DNA of 56,462 nt, the filler included, from Squatina squatina (Eukaryota): NCBI GenBank assembly GCA_031763465.1. It is 4 parts of 4 records of this genome, joined end to end, with 100 filler letters (N's around TTAATTAATTAA, not from the genome) between each part and the next. Parts side by side here need not be neighbours in the genome. Positions count along the whole stretch, not along the records: positions 30,090 to 43,884 come from JARFOE010000038.1; 3 more parts are not named here. One strand, written 5' to 3'. The notes under the pieces were generated by a model. The model saw only the letters and a program-made list of their open reading frames with translations, had not been told where the DNA came from and made no database searches. Of this stretch, positions 14,135 to 43,928 are shown piece by piece; position 1 is the stretch's first letter, and each line of letters opens with the position of its first letter. A program made the translations under genes and the position numbers.

Positions 14135-14265
14135 GAAAAGAAAATAACTGAGAATGTTAAATCTCAAATGAAAACAGAAAAGTTTGGACATATCAGGTTT
14201 GTCAACATCTAAAATGAGAAGAGACTTTTAAATGCAGGCCCTTTGTCAGAATTAGATAAAGAAAC
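14135..14265 (-). mobile_element. Decayed Penelope-like 3' terminal remnant
   Basis: Minus strand TTCTGACAAAGGGCC..AGATGTTGAC..TTTTCTGTTTTCATTTGAGATTT resembles the same terminal repeat. Confidence 0.45.
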
Positions 14266-26609: not shown

Positions 26610-29600
26610 NNNNNNNNNNNNNNNNNNNNNNNNNNNNNNNNNNNNNNNNNNNNNNNNNNNNNNNNNNNNNNNNNNNNNNNNNNNNNNNNNNNNNNNNNNN
26701 NNNNNNNNNTCACCCCATCCCGGGCCCGAAATTCACTTCCGCCCCTGCAGAAGCGCCGGGTAAAAACACCACCAGCGGCAGGAGGCGTGGATCAGGTGGC
26801 CGGCCGTCACCGGGGGTGATGATTAAAGGCGAGGTGGCCAAGGTAAGTAAAAAAACCTGACCTATGCTGATGCATTCACTGGTTCCTGCCCGCAATTGTT
26901 AAGCCCAGGTCTCTGCTTGAGTGTGGCGCTGATCATGTGGGTTCACCGCTCCCTTGGTGGTCCAGGTCGGTCCGTTTTAAATTGCAGAGCTTGTAAGGGA
27001 GGGGAGGACCGTCTGTACGTGGCAGCATTGCTGAGGTTTTTGCCCCGCTTGCATCCTTTAGCGCTCCAAGAAGGAAGTGGAGCTCCACTTCCTCCCTGGA
27101 GCGCTAAAGCCAATTTTTTGAGAGCAGAGAAACATTAGTGCCCAACGCAAAGTTTCCCAGCTTTCAAAAGTTACGGCCCCCAATTGGGGCGACAATGAAT
27201 TTCTTCCCCACTATGCCCTAATACACGAAACAAAGAAATCAGTTCCTACTCTCTGACAATGGGAAATATGTTTATTTCAGTGCAAAATAGGTAATCATCT
27301 TCTGCATAAGTATAAAAGCAGAGGGATAGGAGCAAGGCAAGGGGTGGGATTATGACTTGGGTACTGCTGGTGAGGATGAAAATTTATTGGAAACATAAGC
27401 ACATCCCAGGCTTTAGAAAGAGATGGAAAATAGACATCTGGTTCAGAGCCAGAGGTTTGATGCCTGACTTAGATATTTTAGAAACTTCCAGACACGCCTC
27501 TCATAAGACTGGGCTGCCCTGATCCAAAATTGGATGGTTAACAGTGACTCTGCAGCAAGGTTTAGCCACACTCTGAAGGAGCTGTTAGATCGAAGTGACA
27601 GGCAGCATATTGTCTCACAGCTGTGTGCACAGCTGTACAAAAAAAGGCCTCCAAGTTATTTTCCCACTGGGTCAGTTACAAATGTTCTTGGCATTTGGGC
27701 TTGACCCTTGTTGGTTGGGCTTGGCCCTTCTTGAAGATCACTCACAGGTTGAAGTGCTGTTTTGATAAATAGGCTAAGTTGGGCATATTTTCAAACAACA
27801 TTGAACTGTTACTGTCCAGAAAGCATGAACAGTGCTTTGGATTCCTTTGCCTTGCTGCTTAGTTGTGAGAGGACGTAACTGTAAAAGCTAAACTCCCTGA
27901 ATGTGGCCCCTTCACATGTTGGTAGCTGTGTTTTCTTTCCTTTCCCCAATGGTATCTCCACTGGATCTCACTGGGTTCCGTTCCATGGGCACCAGCACCC
28001 CACCAGTATTTCATCCATATGGCCCTTCTTCATATGTGGCAGGCATGATTGTATTCCGAGATCAACAGGAATGGTAGGCTTGACTGATTTTTCCTCTCCC
28101 TAACACAAGCACACTGAGGACAATTCTAGCACCTCAACTGCTGTCTATGCTGAGATCAGCTAGTGTAGGAATTGAACTTGGGCCCTTTTGGTTTGTATAA
28201 TTTAGTGCTTCACAAGTTAATATCTTTACCCACTAGGCTAGTGGCAGGTGGAGCTCAAAATATTTGATCAAATATTTATTCACACATATCCTCACATAGG
28301 CTCGACAGGATTGCTCGTATGTATAATGAGATGCAGTCAGACCCTGATAACACAGTTTGCAATCAGAATAAAAGAGCTCTATCATTCCAATAATTTTGGC
28401 CCACAGTCAGTTGTCAACATATAGCAAGCACTATCGAGTGTTAATACAGAATCACATCCTCTGTCAGCTACTCCTCCCTTCATCAGATTAGCTCTCTCAT
28501 TGTTTGTTTCTCCATATCCTGTCATGTTTTAGCAGCTTACATAATGTAACTCTGTGTGCACAAGGACAGGTGTCATTTTAGGCAGTGNNNNNNNNNNNNN
28601 NNNNNNNNNNNNNNNNNNNNNNNNNNNNNNNNNNNNNNNNNNNNNNNNNNNNNNNNNNNNNNNNNNNNNNNNNNNNNNNNNNNNNNNTAGGTAATAAAGC
28701 CCTCTTTGCCAGTGATGCCCACATCCCAAGAATAAATACTTAAAAATTAGTACTTCCTGACAAATTATGATTTTGAAAAATCTTTAGGCAGCTATCGAAA
28801 AACATTGTGGTAATTTTCAAACATATAAAATTTAAAACTCTAGCGAAGTGATCTAAAATCAGAGCAGACAATAGCAATTTACAGTAAAACAGCGCAAATT
28901 TGCTTCATCTTATAAATACATTGAATGAATAATATGTTGTCAAGAAATTCTTCATAGAAATTATTAAATTTTGCAAACCTAGTGCCAATGCTTCCAATTT
29001 GGCAAGTAATGGGTACATTTTTAGATTCAGTTAGAGAGAGTAATTTTGCTGTTTCTAGCAATAAATAGCAATAATTAAAAACCACAAAGGAAAATGCATT
29101 AAACTATAGGAAATGGTGTACTGTTTTTTAGACTAGATCTTTTTCAAGGTTTAATTTGCAATTTTTTTTAATTGTCAGTAGCAAACACTTCCCATATGTG
29201 CCATTTCCGCTGCTCCTGACTTATGTTCCACCTGCTATGCTCACTCTATTAATCGTTATCTGATTGGCACAATACATTCTGTGGTGGGTTACAAAGACCA
29301 AGTGGCTTGAAAAAGCTCTCAGTTTTCCGAGGATGCAGTTGTCACTTTTCGTTAAGCGGCACGAATTCAAACTGTCACAATTCTCTCATTCACCAGACTT
29401 TGAGAAAAGCACATGCGCGTTCCTCTGGGAATCCTGGGTTATCCCACTGCCGCCTGGGATTGTTCACAGCTACTACTGACATGAAGGCAGCAATAGTGGA
29501 TTGTGAAAAAGCTGGATTCAAATACAGCCGAAAAGCCCACAGAAAGAAAGCCATACTTTGCAGCTGTCTGGAAACCTCACTCAATTGCTTGATGAAATAA

Positions 29601-31094: not shown

Positions 31095-31604
31095 CTGAAA
31101 ACCAAATCGAAAATAGTTTAACATGGGCACACACAGACATTGAGTACAAGAGGGGGATATCTAGCCACACTCCCTCTCATGCACTAAATTTAGGCCCCTC
31201 TCGTGGGTTGATTTTTACACCATGTCCCTTTTAAAAAACAATACCTTTTCGAATGCTGTAATCAATTTGCACCAATCACCACTTGTGGCAAAGTGTTCCA
31301 CATTCTGCTAACTCTTAAAATGTTTCTTTTAAATCGCCCTCGTTACATATCGAGACTGTGCCCCGTGTCTCCGATTTATCTACCAATGGAAACAATGTCT
31401 CGGCCTTTTAGCATTTTTTAGTAGTAAATACGTTTTTTGAGATTGTGAAGCAGTTGTAAGAATGGCAGCAGACAACAGACTGGTCAGTTCCTTGTTGAGA
31501 CACAATCTAGATTAGGCCGAGTGGGTCAGCTGGACACTGGCTTGTTTATATTTTCAGCACTGCTTAAAAAGAATCAGGCATGGAAACTCGCCTGACGGCC
31601 CACT

Positions 31605-31898
31605 CAGCAGGTAAATACCTTGTCCAATGAGGGACAGAGTTCTACGCAGTGGGTAAATGCCTCGTCCAACGAGGGACAGAGCTCTACTCAGCGGGTAAAT
31701 GCCTCGTCCAACGAGGGGCAGAGCTCTGCTCAGCGGGTAAATGCCTCGTCCTATGAGGGACAGAGCTCTACTCAGCGGGCAAACGCCTCGTCCAATGAGG
31801 GACAGAGCTCTACTCAGCGGGCAAACGCCTTATCCAATGAGGGACAGAGCTCTACTCAGCGGGTAAACGCCTCGTCCAATGAGGGACAGAGCTCTACT
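31605..31898. repeat. 42-bp tandem repeat, about 7 copies, truncated by a gap
   Basis: Unit GGGTAAATGCCTCGTCCAATGAGGGACAGAGCTCTACTCAGC. Confidence 0.95.
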
Positions 31899-32527
31899 NN
31901 NNNNNNNNNNNNNNNNNNNNNNNNNNNNNNNNNNNNNNNNNNNNNNNNNNNNNNNNNNNNNNNNNNNNNNNNNNNNNNNNNNNNNNNNNNNNNNNNNNAG
32001 ATAGGAGGTTGGAGCAGTGAGATCAACGGAGAACGCAGAGGGATTTGAAGGCAAGGACAAATTGAATTGAAAAATATTTGAAGGAGAAAAAGAAAAATTG
32101 CAGGGATATGCGGGAAAAGAGCAGGGGGAGTGGGACTAACTGGATTGCTCTTCAAAAGAGCCTGCGCAGACACGATGGGCCGAATGGCCTCCTTCTGTGC
32201 TGTACTATACGATGGCAAGGATTTTGAAGTTGATGTACTGAGGGATGGTTGACCAGGATTAGGATGATGAGCAAATTGGGACTTTATGGGAGGAGGAGAG
32301 TGGTGGCGTTCTGGATGAGGGAGTTTGGGAGGTTAGTGGGGAAGAACACAAGGCACAAATTAAAGGTATCAGTATCAACAGAGGAGGAAGAGAGACAGAA
32401 ATTGGCAACATTTTCAGAGACAGAACTAGGTATTTTTTCCGTAATGGGGCTGCCTGTGGAGCTTCAAACGCAACTCAAATTCAAATATGGCTCAAATTGT
32501 TCTCAAAAATCCAGGTCAGACCTTTAC

Positions 32528-32710
32528 CTCGAACACAGTCTTCGCGGCATAACCTTGGACGTCATCACGGTTAATAACGATCTGAATGACTCGGTACCAC
32601 ACCTCCTCACTGACGTAGTCCCCCGCAATGCGGATGAGGTTCAGGATTGTGTCCACGTACCATGTGTAATCCACTGCATACTTCTCAGCTAGAATTGCCA
32701 CCTTCAGGAC
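32528..32710 (-). CDS. AP2A1: AP-2 alpha-adaptin trunk exon
   Basis: gtgtcag|[61 protein letters not shown]|gtaaag, 183 nt, phase 0-0, contiguous in protein with the 31094 exon. Confidence 0.93.
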
Positions 32711-35150
32711 CTGACACGGATTTAAAACAAAAGGAATGCTGAGTGAGTGGGCGCCCTTTCTGAAATGCTGCAGCCGGCCCAGGCCGATGACCGCCTGGGT
32801 TAAAAACAGGGCGGTACTGAGCCACACAGGTCAGGGACCTTAATCGATGTGTTTCAGTACCGCTCTGGGCCAGCCGAGTCAACAGCCGCTTGATCAGCAT
32901 CCGTGTCACTTAACTCGATACCCAAGTCTTTCCACCGCCATGGCTGCAGTATGTACCGGGTGCACTGGAGCAACTCGCCAGCACCTCCCCATTCCTTTAG
33001 TTTTTGCTCTCAGCTCCTTCCTCCGTACTCTGGAAAAACCCAACTGAGAATTACTGTAAACTTGCATAACCCGGCCATGCTGTGCAGCAGCAAGTAAGAA
33101 AAATAAGTGAAACTCAACTCCTCCGAATACACTCGGGGAAAGTAGGGAGGCAAGGCTTGCATCGAAACATTCCTCATAAATGTTTCACTTCATATACAGC
33201 AAATTCGTTTGGAAGTGTAGCGACATACGCNNNNNNNNNNNNNNNNNNNNNNNNNNNNNNNNNNNNNNNNNNNNNNNNNNNNNNNNNNNNNNNNNNNNNN
33301 NNNNNNNNNNNNNNNNNNNNNNNNNNNNNNNNNNNNNNNNNNNNNNNNNNNNNNNNNNNNNNNNNNNNNNNNNNNNNNNNNNNNNNNNNNNNNNNNNNNN
33401 NNNNNNNNNNNNNNNNNNNNNNNNNNNNNNNNNNNNNNNNNNNNNNNNNNNNNNNNNNNNNNNNNNNNNNNNNNNNNNNNNNNNNNNNNNNNNNNNNNNN
33501 NNNNNNNNNNNNNNNNNNNNNNNNNNNNNNNNNNNNNNNNNNNNNNNNNNNNNNNNNNNNNNNNNNNNNNNNNNNNNNNNNNNNNNNNNNNNNNNNNNNN
33601 NNNNNNNNNNNNNNNNNNNNNNNNNNNNNNNNNNNNNNNNNNNNNNNNNNNNNNNNNNNNNNNNNNNNNNNNNNNNNNNNNNNNNNNNNNNNNNNNNNNN
33701 NNNNNNNNNNNNNNNNNNNNNNNNNNNNNNNNNNNNNNNNNNNNNNNNNNNNNNNNNNNNNNNNNNNNNNNNNNNNNNNNNNNNNNNNNNNNNNNNNNNN
33801 NNNNNNNNNNNNNNNNNNNNNNNNNNNNNNNNNNNNNNNNNNNNNNNNNNNNNNNNNNNNNNNNNNNNNNNNNNNNNNNNNNNNNNNNNNNNNNNNNNNN
33901 NNNNNNNNNNNNNNNNNNNNNNNNNNNNNNNNNNNNNNNNNNNNNNNNNNNNNNNNNNNNNNNNNNNNNNNNNNNNNNNNNNNNNNNNNNNNNNNNNNNN
34001 NNNNNNNNNNNNNNNNNNNNNNNNNNNNNNNNNNNNNNNNNNNNNNNNNNNNNNNNNNNNNNNNNNNNNNNNNNNNNNNNNNNNNNNNNNNNNNNNNNNN
34101 NNNNNNNNNNNNNNNNNNNNNNNNNNNNNNNNNNNNNNNNNNNNNNNNNNNNNNNNNNNNNNNNNNNNNNNNNNNNNNNNNNNNNNACTCAATCTTTAGA
34201 TTTAGATCATAACACAGAATAGCTTACCGCACGTGAGCCACTCTGCTTTTTCTAGTCCTCAGCTGCCAACTGTGGATGTCACTGTATCTAGTAAACACAA
34301 GCCAGCATTTATCATCTTAAAATTGAACTTTTAAAATAAAAAAGTTCAAAATGTCAAAATAAAATCAAGCGAGATGTAGAATTTTTCTTGTTTGATAAAT
34401 CTGCAGTCATGATGTCAACAACATGAACTCTTTTCTGATCAGCACATTTCAGGGTCAAGCAACAACAACCAGGTTAAAAAGAAAATAATCCCCCAATCAT
34501 TGTATATTTAAATACCTGTTTCATTTTAAAAAACATATACATTTTATAAAACAAGCCTTTCATCTTCCTCCCCAGTCTCAAGGTGTCTACAGATTAGCTC
34601 TCCACCCAAGGCAGTAATGCTAGCTGCCGACACTGGTCGCGCAACAAAGTCAGCTTGCCAGTGAATCAGGAGCAGGAGCGCAGCCCCCAGGGCAATATAG
34701 AAGCAATTTGCTGGTCCCATGACTACCGCAGTCAAAAGGAGTGAGCAAGGAATCTACTCTTGGCCCTCCGGCTGTTTTAAGGGCGCACAGAAGCAATTCC
34801 TTACCTACTCCCCCGCTTGCCTCTTGCTCAGTGCTCCACAGCTGGAATCAAGAGACCGAGGGAAGACTAGGCTTTAACCCTACCGCATCTGCACAGTAGT
34901 GTCCCACCTCCCACCTGAATTTCTCTCTTCACACTCTCTGGGGTACAGTTCCAAGGGCGCCAGCTGCCCTCGGGATACCTCACCCAACTGGCCCTATGCA
35001 AGCCCAGAGAGAGCGAGTGCTGGGGTGGAGGCTCTCTGGCTGCGAAAGGCAGCAAAGCCAAATCTACTAAGTCAATGAGCGAGCTGCGTTATTTACATTG
35101 CAACATAACCTAACACCCTTTAAATCGCACACAAACGCCATGCCACATAC

Positions 35151-38765: not shown

Positions 38766-40096
38766 CATGAAGAACTTTTCTACTGTTATTTCTTGTTCCG
38801 TTTTAACATTTCACTTCATTGCTCTGTCCAACACAGAAAATATTGTCACCATTTTGGCAGGGCACAATTCTCGCAATAACTCCAACCTTTAGCAACTAGT
38901 GCTGAATTCCTGTTTCTAATTAACCCCCCGCTACTTCCCATCACCATCTTTTTAAAACACTACTGTCACATCGCAAACACTTGTTCATTGAGATAATCAG
39001 CTGAAACATAATAGGTTCTGGTTCCCTTTGTAATTTCAGCTCCATCGAGCACCAATGTTCCTATTTGTAGCCTTGTGCATGTCTGAGATGCTAACGAGTC
39101 AAACTGCTCCCTGCATTTGCAATTAAAAGCCCTGACTAAATCATAATGACAGAGTTTTTCTGGAAGTGACAATACTGAGTTTGACTATAGGCAACTGGCC
39201 TGTCAAGAAGCATAAAAAAAGACATGCATTTCAACAGCTTTTTCATTCAAGGTGGTGAGAAAAAGCAACTGGAATTCCCATTCCTCACCACGAACTCAAG
39301 ATTTTGGTTGGGAGGGACAGATATTTTGCAGTCTAATAAGGCGAGGCTCAGGGTTGGACTGATGGGTCACCATGACCAAACACCGCACCAACACAAAGAC
39401 TGATCACTCGGACACACAGTACTGGAGGCTGGGCCGAGCCTAGGCTACTTGGGCCAGGAAGGCATTACAGCTTAGCTTGATTCCCCTCCTCGTTCGCTTG
39501 CTCACTCACTTTCTGGCACCACTCACCAGACAAACGCAGGCCGACTTTTCTCTCCTTAGCCCAGGAACCACCGTCGTGTCCCCCGAGTTGAGATCAGCCA
39601 GTTATTACATGCCGCATGTTTCTCAGTGCCACCGCAGCTCCCATAGTGAGGCATCTGGTAATCCTGACCAATGCTCTCTCCGAGCTGCGTGCGAGGCCGC
39701 ATAGTAATCTGTAAGGTACCGTGCAGGCTGCTCACAAGCTTTTCCAGTGGAAATATCGCACATACGCAAAAAGTGAAAAGGACCGCGCGTTGAAATTAAC
39801 CGGCCCAGCACAACAAAGACATTTAGAGGGAACATTGCTCCTGATTCTTTAACACGTTTAACTATACAATGAAGAAATTCATTAATATAGCATCTTGTGT
39901 TTCAAATGATCTGAAGCACTTCACATACAAATCACTTTCTGCAGGGAAGCACCTTGTGTAGGGAGGTGCAGCAGAAACAGCAATGAAATAAAAGATGTAT
40001 TCCTGGCGAGGGAAATGTGCTAGTTCAGACAGCAGAACTCTGCTTTTCTGCCAACAGTGCCACAGGATCCTTCTGAACAGACAGAGCCTTGGTTTA

Positions 40097-40354
<258 letters not shown>

Positions 40355-40665: not shown

Positions 40666-41346
40666 GGCCCTGAAATTGCGATCGGAGGCTTCCTGTGTGC
40701 GGGTGCATCCAATGGCCATTTCCCTTACGTACTTACCCAAGGGTCCTGGATCCACGGGAGTTTGCGATATTCAGCCGCCCCCCTGCCCCTCCGAGTTGGA
40801 GATTCGGAGCCGGGCTCTCTAGTTTCCCGGGCAAGTCGAGCGAAGAGGCTGGAAAGGTCACATGGGAGGCCCAGCCAATTAGGTAGGCGTATCTTTTATT
40901 GAAGTTTTGACAGCTCTCAGTGATCTGTCAAGATCTGCCAAAACTTCAATAAAAGATGAAAAACACAAACACATCACAAAACATTTTTAAAACCATTTTA
41001 ACATTAAAATTTAATAAAAAGGAGACAAGACCATTTTTTTTTAAATGAAAAAAAAATCTTTTAAAATGTTTAAAAACACTTACCTTACTGGGAATGGTTT
41101 TAAAGTAATGTCCCATTAATTAAAAAAAAAGTTTGTTACGCAGGTAAAACCAAGCAGATACGCTAGGTTTTACCAAATGTAAAAAATTTGAAGAGATCCC
41201 CAGCAAAAGCTTTGCAAAAATATCACAAAGCTCAGCGCTGGGGATGAGCTCCACAGCCGAAGCGTTGGATTGGTCAAGATTCTTGACAGATCGCAAATGC
41301 CGGTTATGCGGGCTTACGATTGGCAGCCCCCGTAACCGGTTTTTGC
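40666..41346. mobile_element. GC-rich non-autonomous DNA-transposon-like repeat
   Basis: aaattgcgatcggaggc..cgtacttacc..ggcccagccaat is collinear with the reverse complement of about 54430-54625. Contains an internal 27-bp inverted repeat. Confidence 0.5.
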
Positions 41347-41774: not shown

Positions 41775-42425
41775 AAACAAAAAAACAGAGAATGCTGGAA
41801 GTACTCAGTGGGTCAGGCAACGTCTGTGGAGAAAGAAACAGAATTAACGTTTCAGGTCGATGACCCTTTATCAAAACTGGAAAAAGTTAGAGCTGTAATG
41901 GGTTTTTAAGCAAGTACAGAGGCAGGGGAAAGGGGGGAGGGGAGGAAAGAACAAAAGGGAAGGTCTGTGATAGGGTGGGAGGCAGGAGAGATTAAGAGAT
42001 GGTGCAAGGCAAACGGAGGTGGTAATGGACAAATCAAGAAATTAAAGATGTGTCTATCAGAGTGTGAATCAGCAACAGCAGTTAGAGGGAAACAAAAACA
42101 CAGAATAACTAAAGAAAGAAAAAAAATTATGGTCTGAAATGGTTGAACTCGATGTTGAGTCCAGAAGGCTGTGAAGTGCCTAATCGAAAGACGAGGGGCT
42201 GTTCCTCGAGCTTACGTTGAGCTTCATTGGAAGAGTGTAAGAGACCAAGGATGGGGAGATCAGAGTGGGAATGAAGCGGAGAATCCAAGTGACAGGCGAC
42301 CGGGAGCTCGGGGTCACCCTTACGGACCGAACGGAGGCTGTTCCGCAAAGTGGGTCACCCAAACTGCGACTGGTCTCCCCAACGCAGAGGAGACTGCGTC
42401 GTGAGCAGTGAATGCAGTGTTATTA
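41775..42425 (-). mobile_element. Penelope-like retroelement 3' fragment (GIY-YIG endonuclease C-terminus plus terminal repeat)
   Basis: Minus strand CIHCSRRSLLCVGETSRSLGD (degenerate YIGET), frameshifting into LRSVRKGDPELPVACHLDSPLHSHSDL..RKLEEQPLVFRLGTSQPSGLNIEF*. Followed by a pyrimidine-rich tract and a hammerhead motif. Confidence 0.88.
41842..41878 (-). ncRNA. Minimal type-I hammerhead ribozyme motif (U3-A8 variant)
   Basis: AGUU-UUGAUAA-AGGGUCAUCGACCU-GAAA-CG-UU^AAUU. Stem I AGUU/AAUU, core box, stem II GGGUC/GACCU, GAAA, palindromic ACGU stem III and GUU cleavage triplet are all present. Confidence 0.65.
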
Positions 42426-43031
42426 AATTAAACAAGCAGGTTTTACGGAGCGTCTCAAAGGAGGACACAATAAAGGAGGAGGCTGGAGGGGGCGGAAAAT
42501 AAGTCTTCGCCAGTAGAGTGAAACACGCTCATACTGAATCGCCAACCCGTTTTACATCGCGCACGATCTTCTCGCGACTGGTGAAGACCTATCTCCCACC
42601 CCCCATGGAAACCTGTCACCTTGAGAAGGGGTTGGAAGTCCGAGGTGAGAAAAAGTTGTCCAATTACAAGATAAGGTTGCTTTGGATCTCAAGTTTTTGG
42701 GCTCGCCAAATGTTAACAGCCCTGGAGCCAAGACCTGACGTTACACCCGAGATGTAAAGAGGGTCCACAAAGTAGAGGTTAGAGCAAGATTCAAAGTCTA
42801 GGTTCATCCAGTTTTCAGCTCTCCCTTCCCTCCGCTGAAGGAACCCTACATAACCCATTGAGCCTTAGTTCCTCTTTTAACCTCTCGTGCTTTTGTGCGC
42901 GCGCTTATTTTACCCTTCAAAGGGTTTTCTTCACAGCATATCCAAGCCTGCCAATCTCTAGCCGGCGCCCACCCATTGGAAGGTCACTACTTCCCCTTTC
43001 CCCCGATTATTTACATTTCTTTCGCATTGTT

Positions 43032-43205
43032 TCAGTCCAAATCCAAGTCCGAGTCCGAGTGCAATGAGATCTGTTCTGCCATCTGCTGCACCGTCTCGTC
43101 CAATGGCGTGAGCTTCCCATCACAGCCTACTCCCATTGGCTGGATAATCTGCTCCCTGTCAGGAAGCGCGTGGCACACTACAACAACTGGCTGCGGAAAA
43201 ACATT
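43032..43205 (-). CDS. Terminal coding exon, probably BCL2L12
   Basis: Open from the contig edge: NVFPQPVVVVCHALPDREQIIQPMGVGCDGKLTPLDETVQQMAEQISLHSDSDLDLD*. It lies between SCAF1 and PRMT1 on the same strand, where BCL2L12 sits in mammals. Identity is inferred from synteny only. Confidence 0.4.
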   Translation of the reverse strand, partial: NVFPQPVVVVCHALPDREQIIQPMGVGCDGKLTPLDETVQQMAEQISLHSDSDLDLD

Positions 43206-43497
43206 NNNNNNNNNNNNNNNNNNNNNNNNNNNNNNNNNNNNNNNNNNNNNNNNNNNNNNNNNNNNNNNNNNNNNNNNNNNNNNNNNNNNNNNNNNNNNNN
43301 NNNNNCCTTCAGGAGAGGAGTGGAGTGGAGTGGAGTAAAGAAATAGAAACTCGTGCCTGACTAAGCAACTACTTCAAATCAGGTACCTAAACCAAGAAAG
43401 GGTGAATAAAAGGAGGATGATAAGTACTGGCCGCACCATCTTGCATCGTTCTACAAAAAAGCCCAGAGTCAACGTGTGAAAGATGGGAGGTGCTCAC

Positions 43498-43626
43498 CTT
43501 ATGTACAGCTTTGCGGAGAATGTCTTTGTAATCGTCCTTGTTGATCTCCTTCCTCTGATAGAACGGTTTGATGGCCAGTTTCACCTCCTCCACCGCTCGC
43601 TCCTGTGTATTCAGCTTCTTCAGGTA
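43498..43626 (-). CDS. SCAF1: SR-related CTD-associated factor 1, CTD-binding domain exon
   Basis: ctgctcacag|[43 protein letters not shown]|gtgagc, 129 nt. SCAF1/PHRF1/SCAF11 family; YLKKL.TQ, AVHK and linkage to PRMT1 favour SCAF1. Confidence 0.8.
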
Positions 43627-43928
43627 CTGTGAGCAGAGGAGCAACAGAATCAGTCTCTGCCCTCTTGCACTGGGACGTCTCGGCTTGGTTCTCCCAAACA
43701 GCTCGAGCCCATGGTGCGCAACCCTTTGGGCGTGAACACAAGGCCCATTGGGTGTTGGCAGCCTATTTGACTGCAGAACGCATCACAGCCCAGTTCGTCC
43801 TCACCCGACATCCACTTTCCCGCAGTGGTCAATGGAGAACAAGTGGGGGATTGGGAGGGGGGATTGGTTACATATTTTTCTACANNNNNNNNNNNNNNNN
43901 NNNNNNNNNNNNNNNNNNNNNNNNNNNN

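Follow-up and report, generated by a model that had tools for sequence, protein, structure and literature searches.

The window, by which we mean the whole stretch of 56,462 nucleotides of Squatina squatina DNA analysed here (GCA_031763465.1), is made up of four joined parts; the one from C38 carries on its minus strand a minimal hammerhead motif within the remnant of a Penelope-like element (PLE). The hammerhead is flanked by host-gene exons in the same orientation, namely a SCAF11-like/SRI exon upstream and a methyltransferase exon followed by an adaptin exon downstream. The methyltransferase exon is presumably PRMT1-like, and we take the adaptin exon to be AP-2 alpha-like. The features of the locus are as follows:

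43387-43782, minus strand: SCAF11-like/SRI exon
42127..42418, minus strand: broken GIY-YIG endonuclease, last ~97 codons (86% DNA identity to locus L005 over 292 nt)
41783..42126, minus strand: 3' non-coding region or pseudo-LTR of the Penelope-like copy, holding the hammerhead (BLAST against the fetched loci, ~71-86% identity)
41842..41878, minus strand: minimal type-I hammerhead (from the sequence; same place as locus L001, 100% match)
40094-40354, minus strand: class I methyltransferase exon
32516-32830, minus strand: adaptin exon

In BLAST comparisons with the fetched loci, the homology to other copies starts at about 42418 and stops at about 41781-41783, and everything 5' of the endonuclease remnant, including the reverse transcriptase (RT), is absent from the window copy. 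The preliminary description of this DNA had called the adjacent endonuclease ORF frameshifted, and compared with L005 and L086 the remnant indeed carries one extra base at each of two places, near 42351 and near 42338; it also has CVG in place of YIG and has lost one CxxC cysteine. The better-kept copies of the family read ..CKRRRCNTC..VYCIRCSRCGLLYIGET.. at the endonuclease. For the EN+ Penelope endonuclease and the Neptune zinc finger we used the motif definitions given in the available text of PMC8557442. The EN+ endonuclease motif is present in the family copies, and the Neptune CX2-5CxxC linker before the endonuclease was found with a strict pattern as C-x4-C-x2-C in 6 of 33 loci, in a region that lies outside the window remnant. 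Pfam gave a weak, below cut-off match to GIY-YIG on the L005 frame (E=0.021) and no match on two frames of the window remnant. In the endonuclease protein search of the same genome, 150 of 12,660 first-look candidates were scored. Because no RT was recovered upstream of the endonuclease among the fetched loci, whose three longest "open frames" were runs of N, the clade is called Neptune-like by motif only. On these sequence comparisons, the Penelope copy is Neptune-like, truncated at its 5' end and frameshifted, and the window motif is a hammerhead located in its 3' repeat.

Directly 5' of this Penelope stub, an unrelated sequence (42419-43205, minus strand) has a ..TAACA end and then a TGGCGAGC motif at 42708, which we take to resemble an LTR end with a primer-binding site, in the same orientation as the hammerhead; nothing similar was found among the other loci compared with it. 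Elsewhere in the window, near-perfect hairpins at 40892-40956 and 27056-27109, which had sub-threshold matches to microRNA families in Rfam, are probably small inverted-repeat elements, and ~31600-31900 holds a tandem repeat, seen as repeating translations, whose unit measures roughly 36 nt.

Anatomy of the hammerhead and its published relatives

The minus-strand anatomy agrees with the preliminary description in every part, the motif being composed of a potential 4-bp stem I with one G-U pair, a U3-A8 core, a 5-bp stem II, GAAA, an ACGU palindrome and a GUU cleavage triplet. Its parts, read from the sequence, are:

41878-41875, minus strand: stem I, 5' strand
41868..41874, minus strand: core U3-U4-G5-A6-U7-A8-A9 (UUGAUAA)
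41867, minus strand: one extra, unpaired A on the 5' side of stem II
41866-41854, minus strand: stem II, 5 bp, first pair G-U, loop AUC
41853-41850, minus strand: GAAA
41850-41847, minus strand: ACGU palindrome
41846, minus strand: U17
41845..41846, minus strand: predicted cleavage site after U17
41845-41842, minus strand: stem I, 3' strand, with one G-U pair

The cleavage site, which follows from applying the hammerhead numbering to the sequence, is predicted between 41846 and 41845, where it had previously been placed. The core and GAAA required of PLE minimal type-I hammerheads are both present, the core in U3-A8 form, as are the palindrome at 15.1-16.1 and the NUH triplet (ACGU and GUU, respectively). 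A search with the motif CUGANGA would miss the core UUGAUAA, as had been pointed out, and an Rfam scan of the window gave no match to a hammerhead family even at E<=10, among 8 weak matches.

Minimal hammerheads (min-HHRs) in the pseudo-LTRs of PLEs are known from metazoans, including fish Xena, Poseidon and Neptune elements (Cervera and De la Pena 2014, PMC4209133). As described in the available part of that paper, they share with the Squatina motif the type I form, an unpaired base ahead of stem II, a palindromic 15.2-16.2 and no loop 3, their 4-bp helix I corresponds to the stem I that the window copy may form, and they likewise occur in a repeat 3' of a GIY-YIG frame, mostly as single copies of truncated elements. 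The 5-bp stem II of the Squatina family differs in opening with G-U or A-U, whereas theirs usually, although not absolutely, opens with G10.1-C11.1, and the window copy differs further by three transitions in its core. Family-wide, among the copies counted by patterns, stem II opens with G-U or A-U and never with G10.1-C11.1, and the loop varies by subtype (AUC, AUU, ACA or UUC).

The swap of the tertiary C3-G8 pair for U3-A8, regarded as tolerated in the preliminary description, has support in the literature available to us. Natural U3-A8 hammerheads, reported to be active in vitro, were published in 2011 (Perreault et al. 2011, PMC3088659) and U3-A8 hammerheads in Penelope elements in 2014 (PMC4209133), the latter including the min-HHR of Cercyon in S. 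mansoni, with which the window copy shares the same swap. Another minimal hammerhead of a vertebrate PLE, that of Anolis Poseidon (PAc), requires its 3-8 pair, regains part of its activity with a C3G/G8C swap, and needed the protein of its element for the assisted cleavage shown in vitro, according to the available text of PMC11167929; PAc is an intact Poseidon-clade element, whereas the window copy is a broken Neptune-like stub known from its sequence. Our literature search for shark PLE hammerheads returned one review and no report of such a hammerhead, and it gave nothing further on the kinetics of C3U/G8A rescue; a 2026 preprint, available in part, describes retrozymes in one chondrichthyan genome.

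Core counts across the family

Genome copies were counted using patterns with one exact tail (stem II to GAAA), in which the loop and two known variable positions were left free, and with the core YUGAYRA instead of the U7 class alone, since the family core has C7. These patterns matched 5,650 copies, a number in which better-kept copies are favoured by the exact tail and in which copies may be duplicated or missed, the assembly consisting of 1.15 million contigs. Reversed-pattern controls gave 0 matches in the genome. The motif is not a chance match, and its earlier assignment to the Penelope-associated minimal type-I hammerheads was right.

The cores were CUGACGA in 2,778 copies, CUGAUGA in 1,675, CUGAYAA in 959 and UUGAYRA in 238, the last including 42 UUGACAA and 5 UUGAUAA. 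The commonest core, CUGACGA, places G8 within a CpG at positions 7-8, a circumstance that the preliminary description had overlooked, and the next two commonest cores are its deamination products (U7-G8 and C7-A8). In the C3A8 class, 91 of the 100 matches listed read CUGACAA. Methylated CpG is an established mutation hotspot, and CpG hypermutability would account for the core counts of the family; A8 is presumably common because C7-G8 forms a CpG, in which G8>A is a hotspot change. The core of the window copy differs from CUGACGA at positions 3, 7 and 8, all by transitions. The change at position 8 is also seen in a second copy in the window:

14243-14249, minus strand: core CUGACAA of an older related copy (CpG-type G8>A; from the sequence)

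As described earlier, this decayed copy has G8>A alone; its stem II is degenerate, with no recognisable 3' arm of stem II and no GAAA.

When the 5,650 copies were classified by positions 3 and 8, there were 4,453 C3-G8, 959 C3-A8, 191 U3-G8 and 47 U3-A8 copies. The 47 double mutants (0.8% of the family) compare with 42.4 expected under independence (OR 1.14, 95% CI 0.82-1.58, p=0.44) and with 41.1 expected from the wild-type odds (P(>=47)=0.20). The exact window core, U3-U7-A8, was observed 5 times against ~4.7 expected, the class shares being estimated by eye among the first 100 matches listed per class. The upper end of the confidence interval, 1.58, is compatible with a U3A8 sublineage of up to roughly 20 copies. 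As a control, copies with G5>A, which cannot be compensated, numbered 182, near the 238 U3 copies, and A8 was present in 15 of 100 G5>A copies among the matches listed (p=0.60 against wild type, p=0.36 against U3 copies). The window motif had been proposed to be a compensated variant; in the selective sense this does not hold, the covariation count, which the preliminary description had itself named as the refuting test, showing no significant excess, and the accompanying caveat that the double change could be chance is, on the copy counts, the better reading. In Cercyon of S. mansoni, according to the available text of PMC4209133, ~1,300 U3-A8 matches stand against ~2,000 canonical ones, whereas the U3-A8 form here is at the level of independent mutation. 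Among 33 loci picked by endonuclease similarity alone, 15 hammerheads were found, and all 15 have C3 and G8.

Relationships among U3-A8 copies

We compared 46 of the 47 U3A8 copies (one was without flank) with 56 C3G8, 30 C3A8 and 22 U3G8 copies, 148 of these 154 having enough aligned columns. Among the 148 copies, no clustering of the U3A8 class was seen, either relative to all other copies (p=0.14) or relative to single mutants (p=0.19), and none of 59 columns was diagnostic of them (lowest p 0.047); they are scattered across all tail subtypes. An initial clustering test with 91 copies, in which the comparison was mostly with C3G8, had given p=0.038, an effect that was gone after the addition of 60 more copies including the single-mutant controls. 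The median divergence from the majority was 6.8% for C3G8, 7.4% for U3A8, 8.5% for C3A8 and 10.2% for U3G8. The window copy departs from the family majority in 8 of 59 downstream columns (13.6%, all transitions), compared with the C3G8 median of 6.8%, and its nearest relative among 91 copies examined is 9.4% away. None of the other four copies with U3-U7-A8 shares its private changes. Besides the window copy itself, one locus, L002, matches exactly over 27 bases; we rejected the idea that it is an allele or daughter of the window copy, as the flanks differ and these private changes are absent. Neither covariation nor a subfamily, which would mark a family-level U3-A8 variant of the Cercyon type, was found.

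The palindrome, stem I and stem II were all kept in 12 of 46 U3A8 copies and 6 of 52 single mutants (p=0.07), and in 9 of 29 C3G8 copies, these samples being drawn from different contig sets. In 79 of 143 copies (loci L001-L197), little homology is left upstream of the core, so that many insertions begin only a few bases 5' of the motif. At such truncation junctions, a base of the flank has probably been read as U3 in some copies, which should affect U3G8 and U3A8 alike. In 13 of the 143 copies, a piece of inverted repeat lies within 120 nt upstream, which is the known PLE arrangement.

Capacity for cleavage and origin of the window core

In secondary-structure estimates, stem II of the window copy pairs with a probability of 0.95. 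Stem I can pair, with one G-U, at a predicted probability of 0.06, compared with 0.23-0.61 in six other copies, and the modelled energy of the double hammerhead is -3.9 versus -8.3 to -9.7 kcal/mol, i.e. 4-6 kcal/mol weaker. The copy occupies a separate 1.76-kb piece, with a 100-N gap on either side. No intact second motif was found in the readable part of C38:537,001-617,000 (80 kb around the copy), where the sole other match is 31 kb away and is without the 3' arm of stem II and GAAA; the numerous N stretches of this region could conceal a partner.

Because the two core changes of the window copy co-occur only as often as chance predicts, we regard it as ordinary and likely inactive. Our explanation, which we hold with considerable confidence, is that the motif belongs to an abundant Penelope-like family as its minimal hammerhead, that the single copy carrying it is truncated at the 5' end and frameshifted, and that U3 and A8 most likely came about through separate neutral mutations once the copy had been inserted, leaving it likely inactive in vivo. 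The element would have arrived with C3-U-G-A-C7-G8-A as its core, or with the U7 form of that core; the methylated CpG at positions 7-8 would then have decayed, and an ordinary transition, C3>U, would have happened to restore a U-A pair. Where an element is intact and in tandem, two motifs are expected to pair through their ACGU palindromes and to form a double hammerhead that cuts after GUU, possibly assembled with the aid of the protein of the element; the window copy has a stem I predicted to be weakened and no intact partner in the readable 80 kb around it.

The same chance origin might still have left a functional residue, if the restored U-A pair permitted weak cutting with trans-paired transcripts or with the help of a protein. 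The in vitro activity of natural U3-A8 hammerheads (PMC3088659, as far as available) and the minimal Poseidon hammerhead, with its need for the 3-8 pair, its partial rescue by a C3G/G8C swap and its protein-assisted cleavage (PMC11167929, likewise), speak for this, as do the intact stem II, GAAA, ACGU and GUU of the window copy and its orientation on the same strand as the flanking exons. However, its stem I is predicted to be weakened, no intact partner was seen in the readable 80 kb, and even wild-type min-HHRs are weak, since single ones did not cleave and dimers cleaved weakly in the experiments described in the available text of PMC4209133; we consider such cutting unlikely. That the compensation was selected, either because a small U3-A8 sublineage was transposed with an active variant, as in Schistosoma Cercyon with its ~1,300 matches (PMC4209133, available part), or because host selection held this copy active, is in our judgement extremely unlikely. 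The slight excess of U3A8 copies (47 versus 41-42) and the better retention of the remaining ribozyme in U3A8 copies than in single mutants are in its favour, but the excess is not significant, the U3A8 copies have no clade or common marker, the other four U3-U7-A8 copies lack the private changes of the window copy, the window copy is more diverged than is typical, and C3-G8 is kept in all 15 hammerheads found beside the best endonuclease matches. On a broader reading, neutral decay of the CpG that contains G8 would have accidentally re-paired dozens of U3-A8 hammerheads in this genome; some of them, among these the sense-oriented window copy with a host gene on either side, would still cleave transcripts of the host by forming trans-dimers, and a few would trace back to a source element with an active U3-A8 ribozyme. 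This too is very unlikely.

Under the preferred explanation of independent neutral mutations, the locus adds one vertebrate Penelope family to a published class of hammerheads, which as it stands matters little. The lesson is methodological: in a methylated genome the core CUGACGA decays at its CpG, so that copies seemingly compensated as U3-A8 are expected by chance, about 40 of them here, and compensation seen in one copy of a repeat needs a copy-number test. Should this lone, worn copy nevertheless cleave a transcript of the host, that would amount to an accidental ribozyme rescue with regulatory potential.
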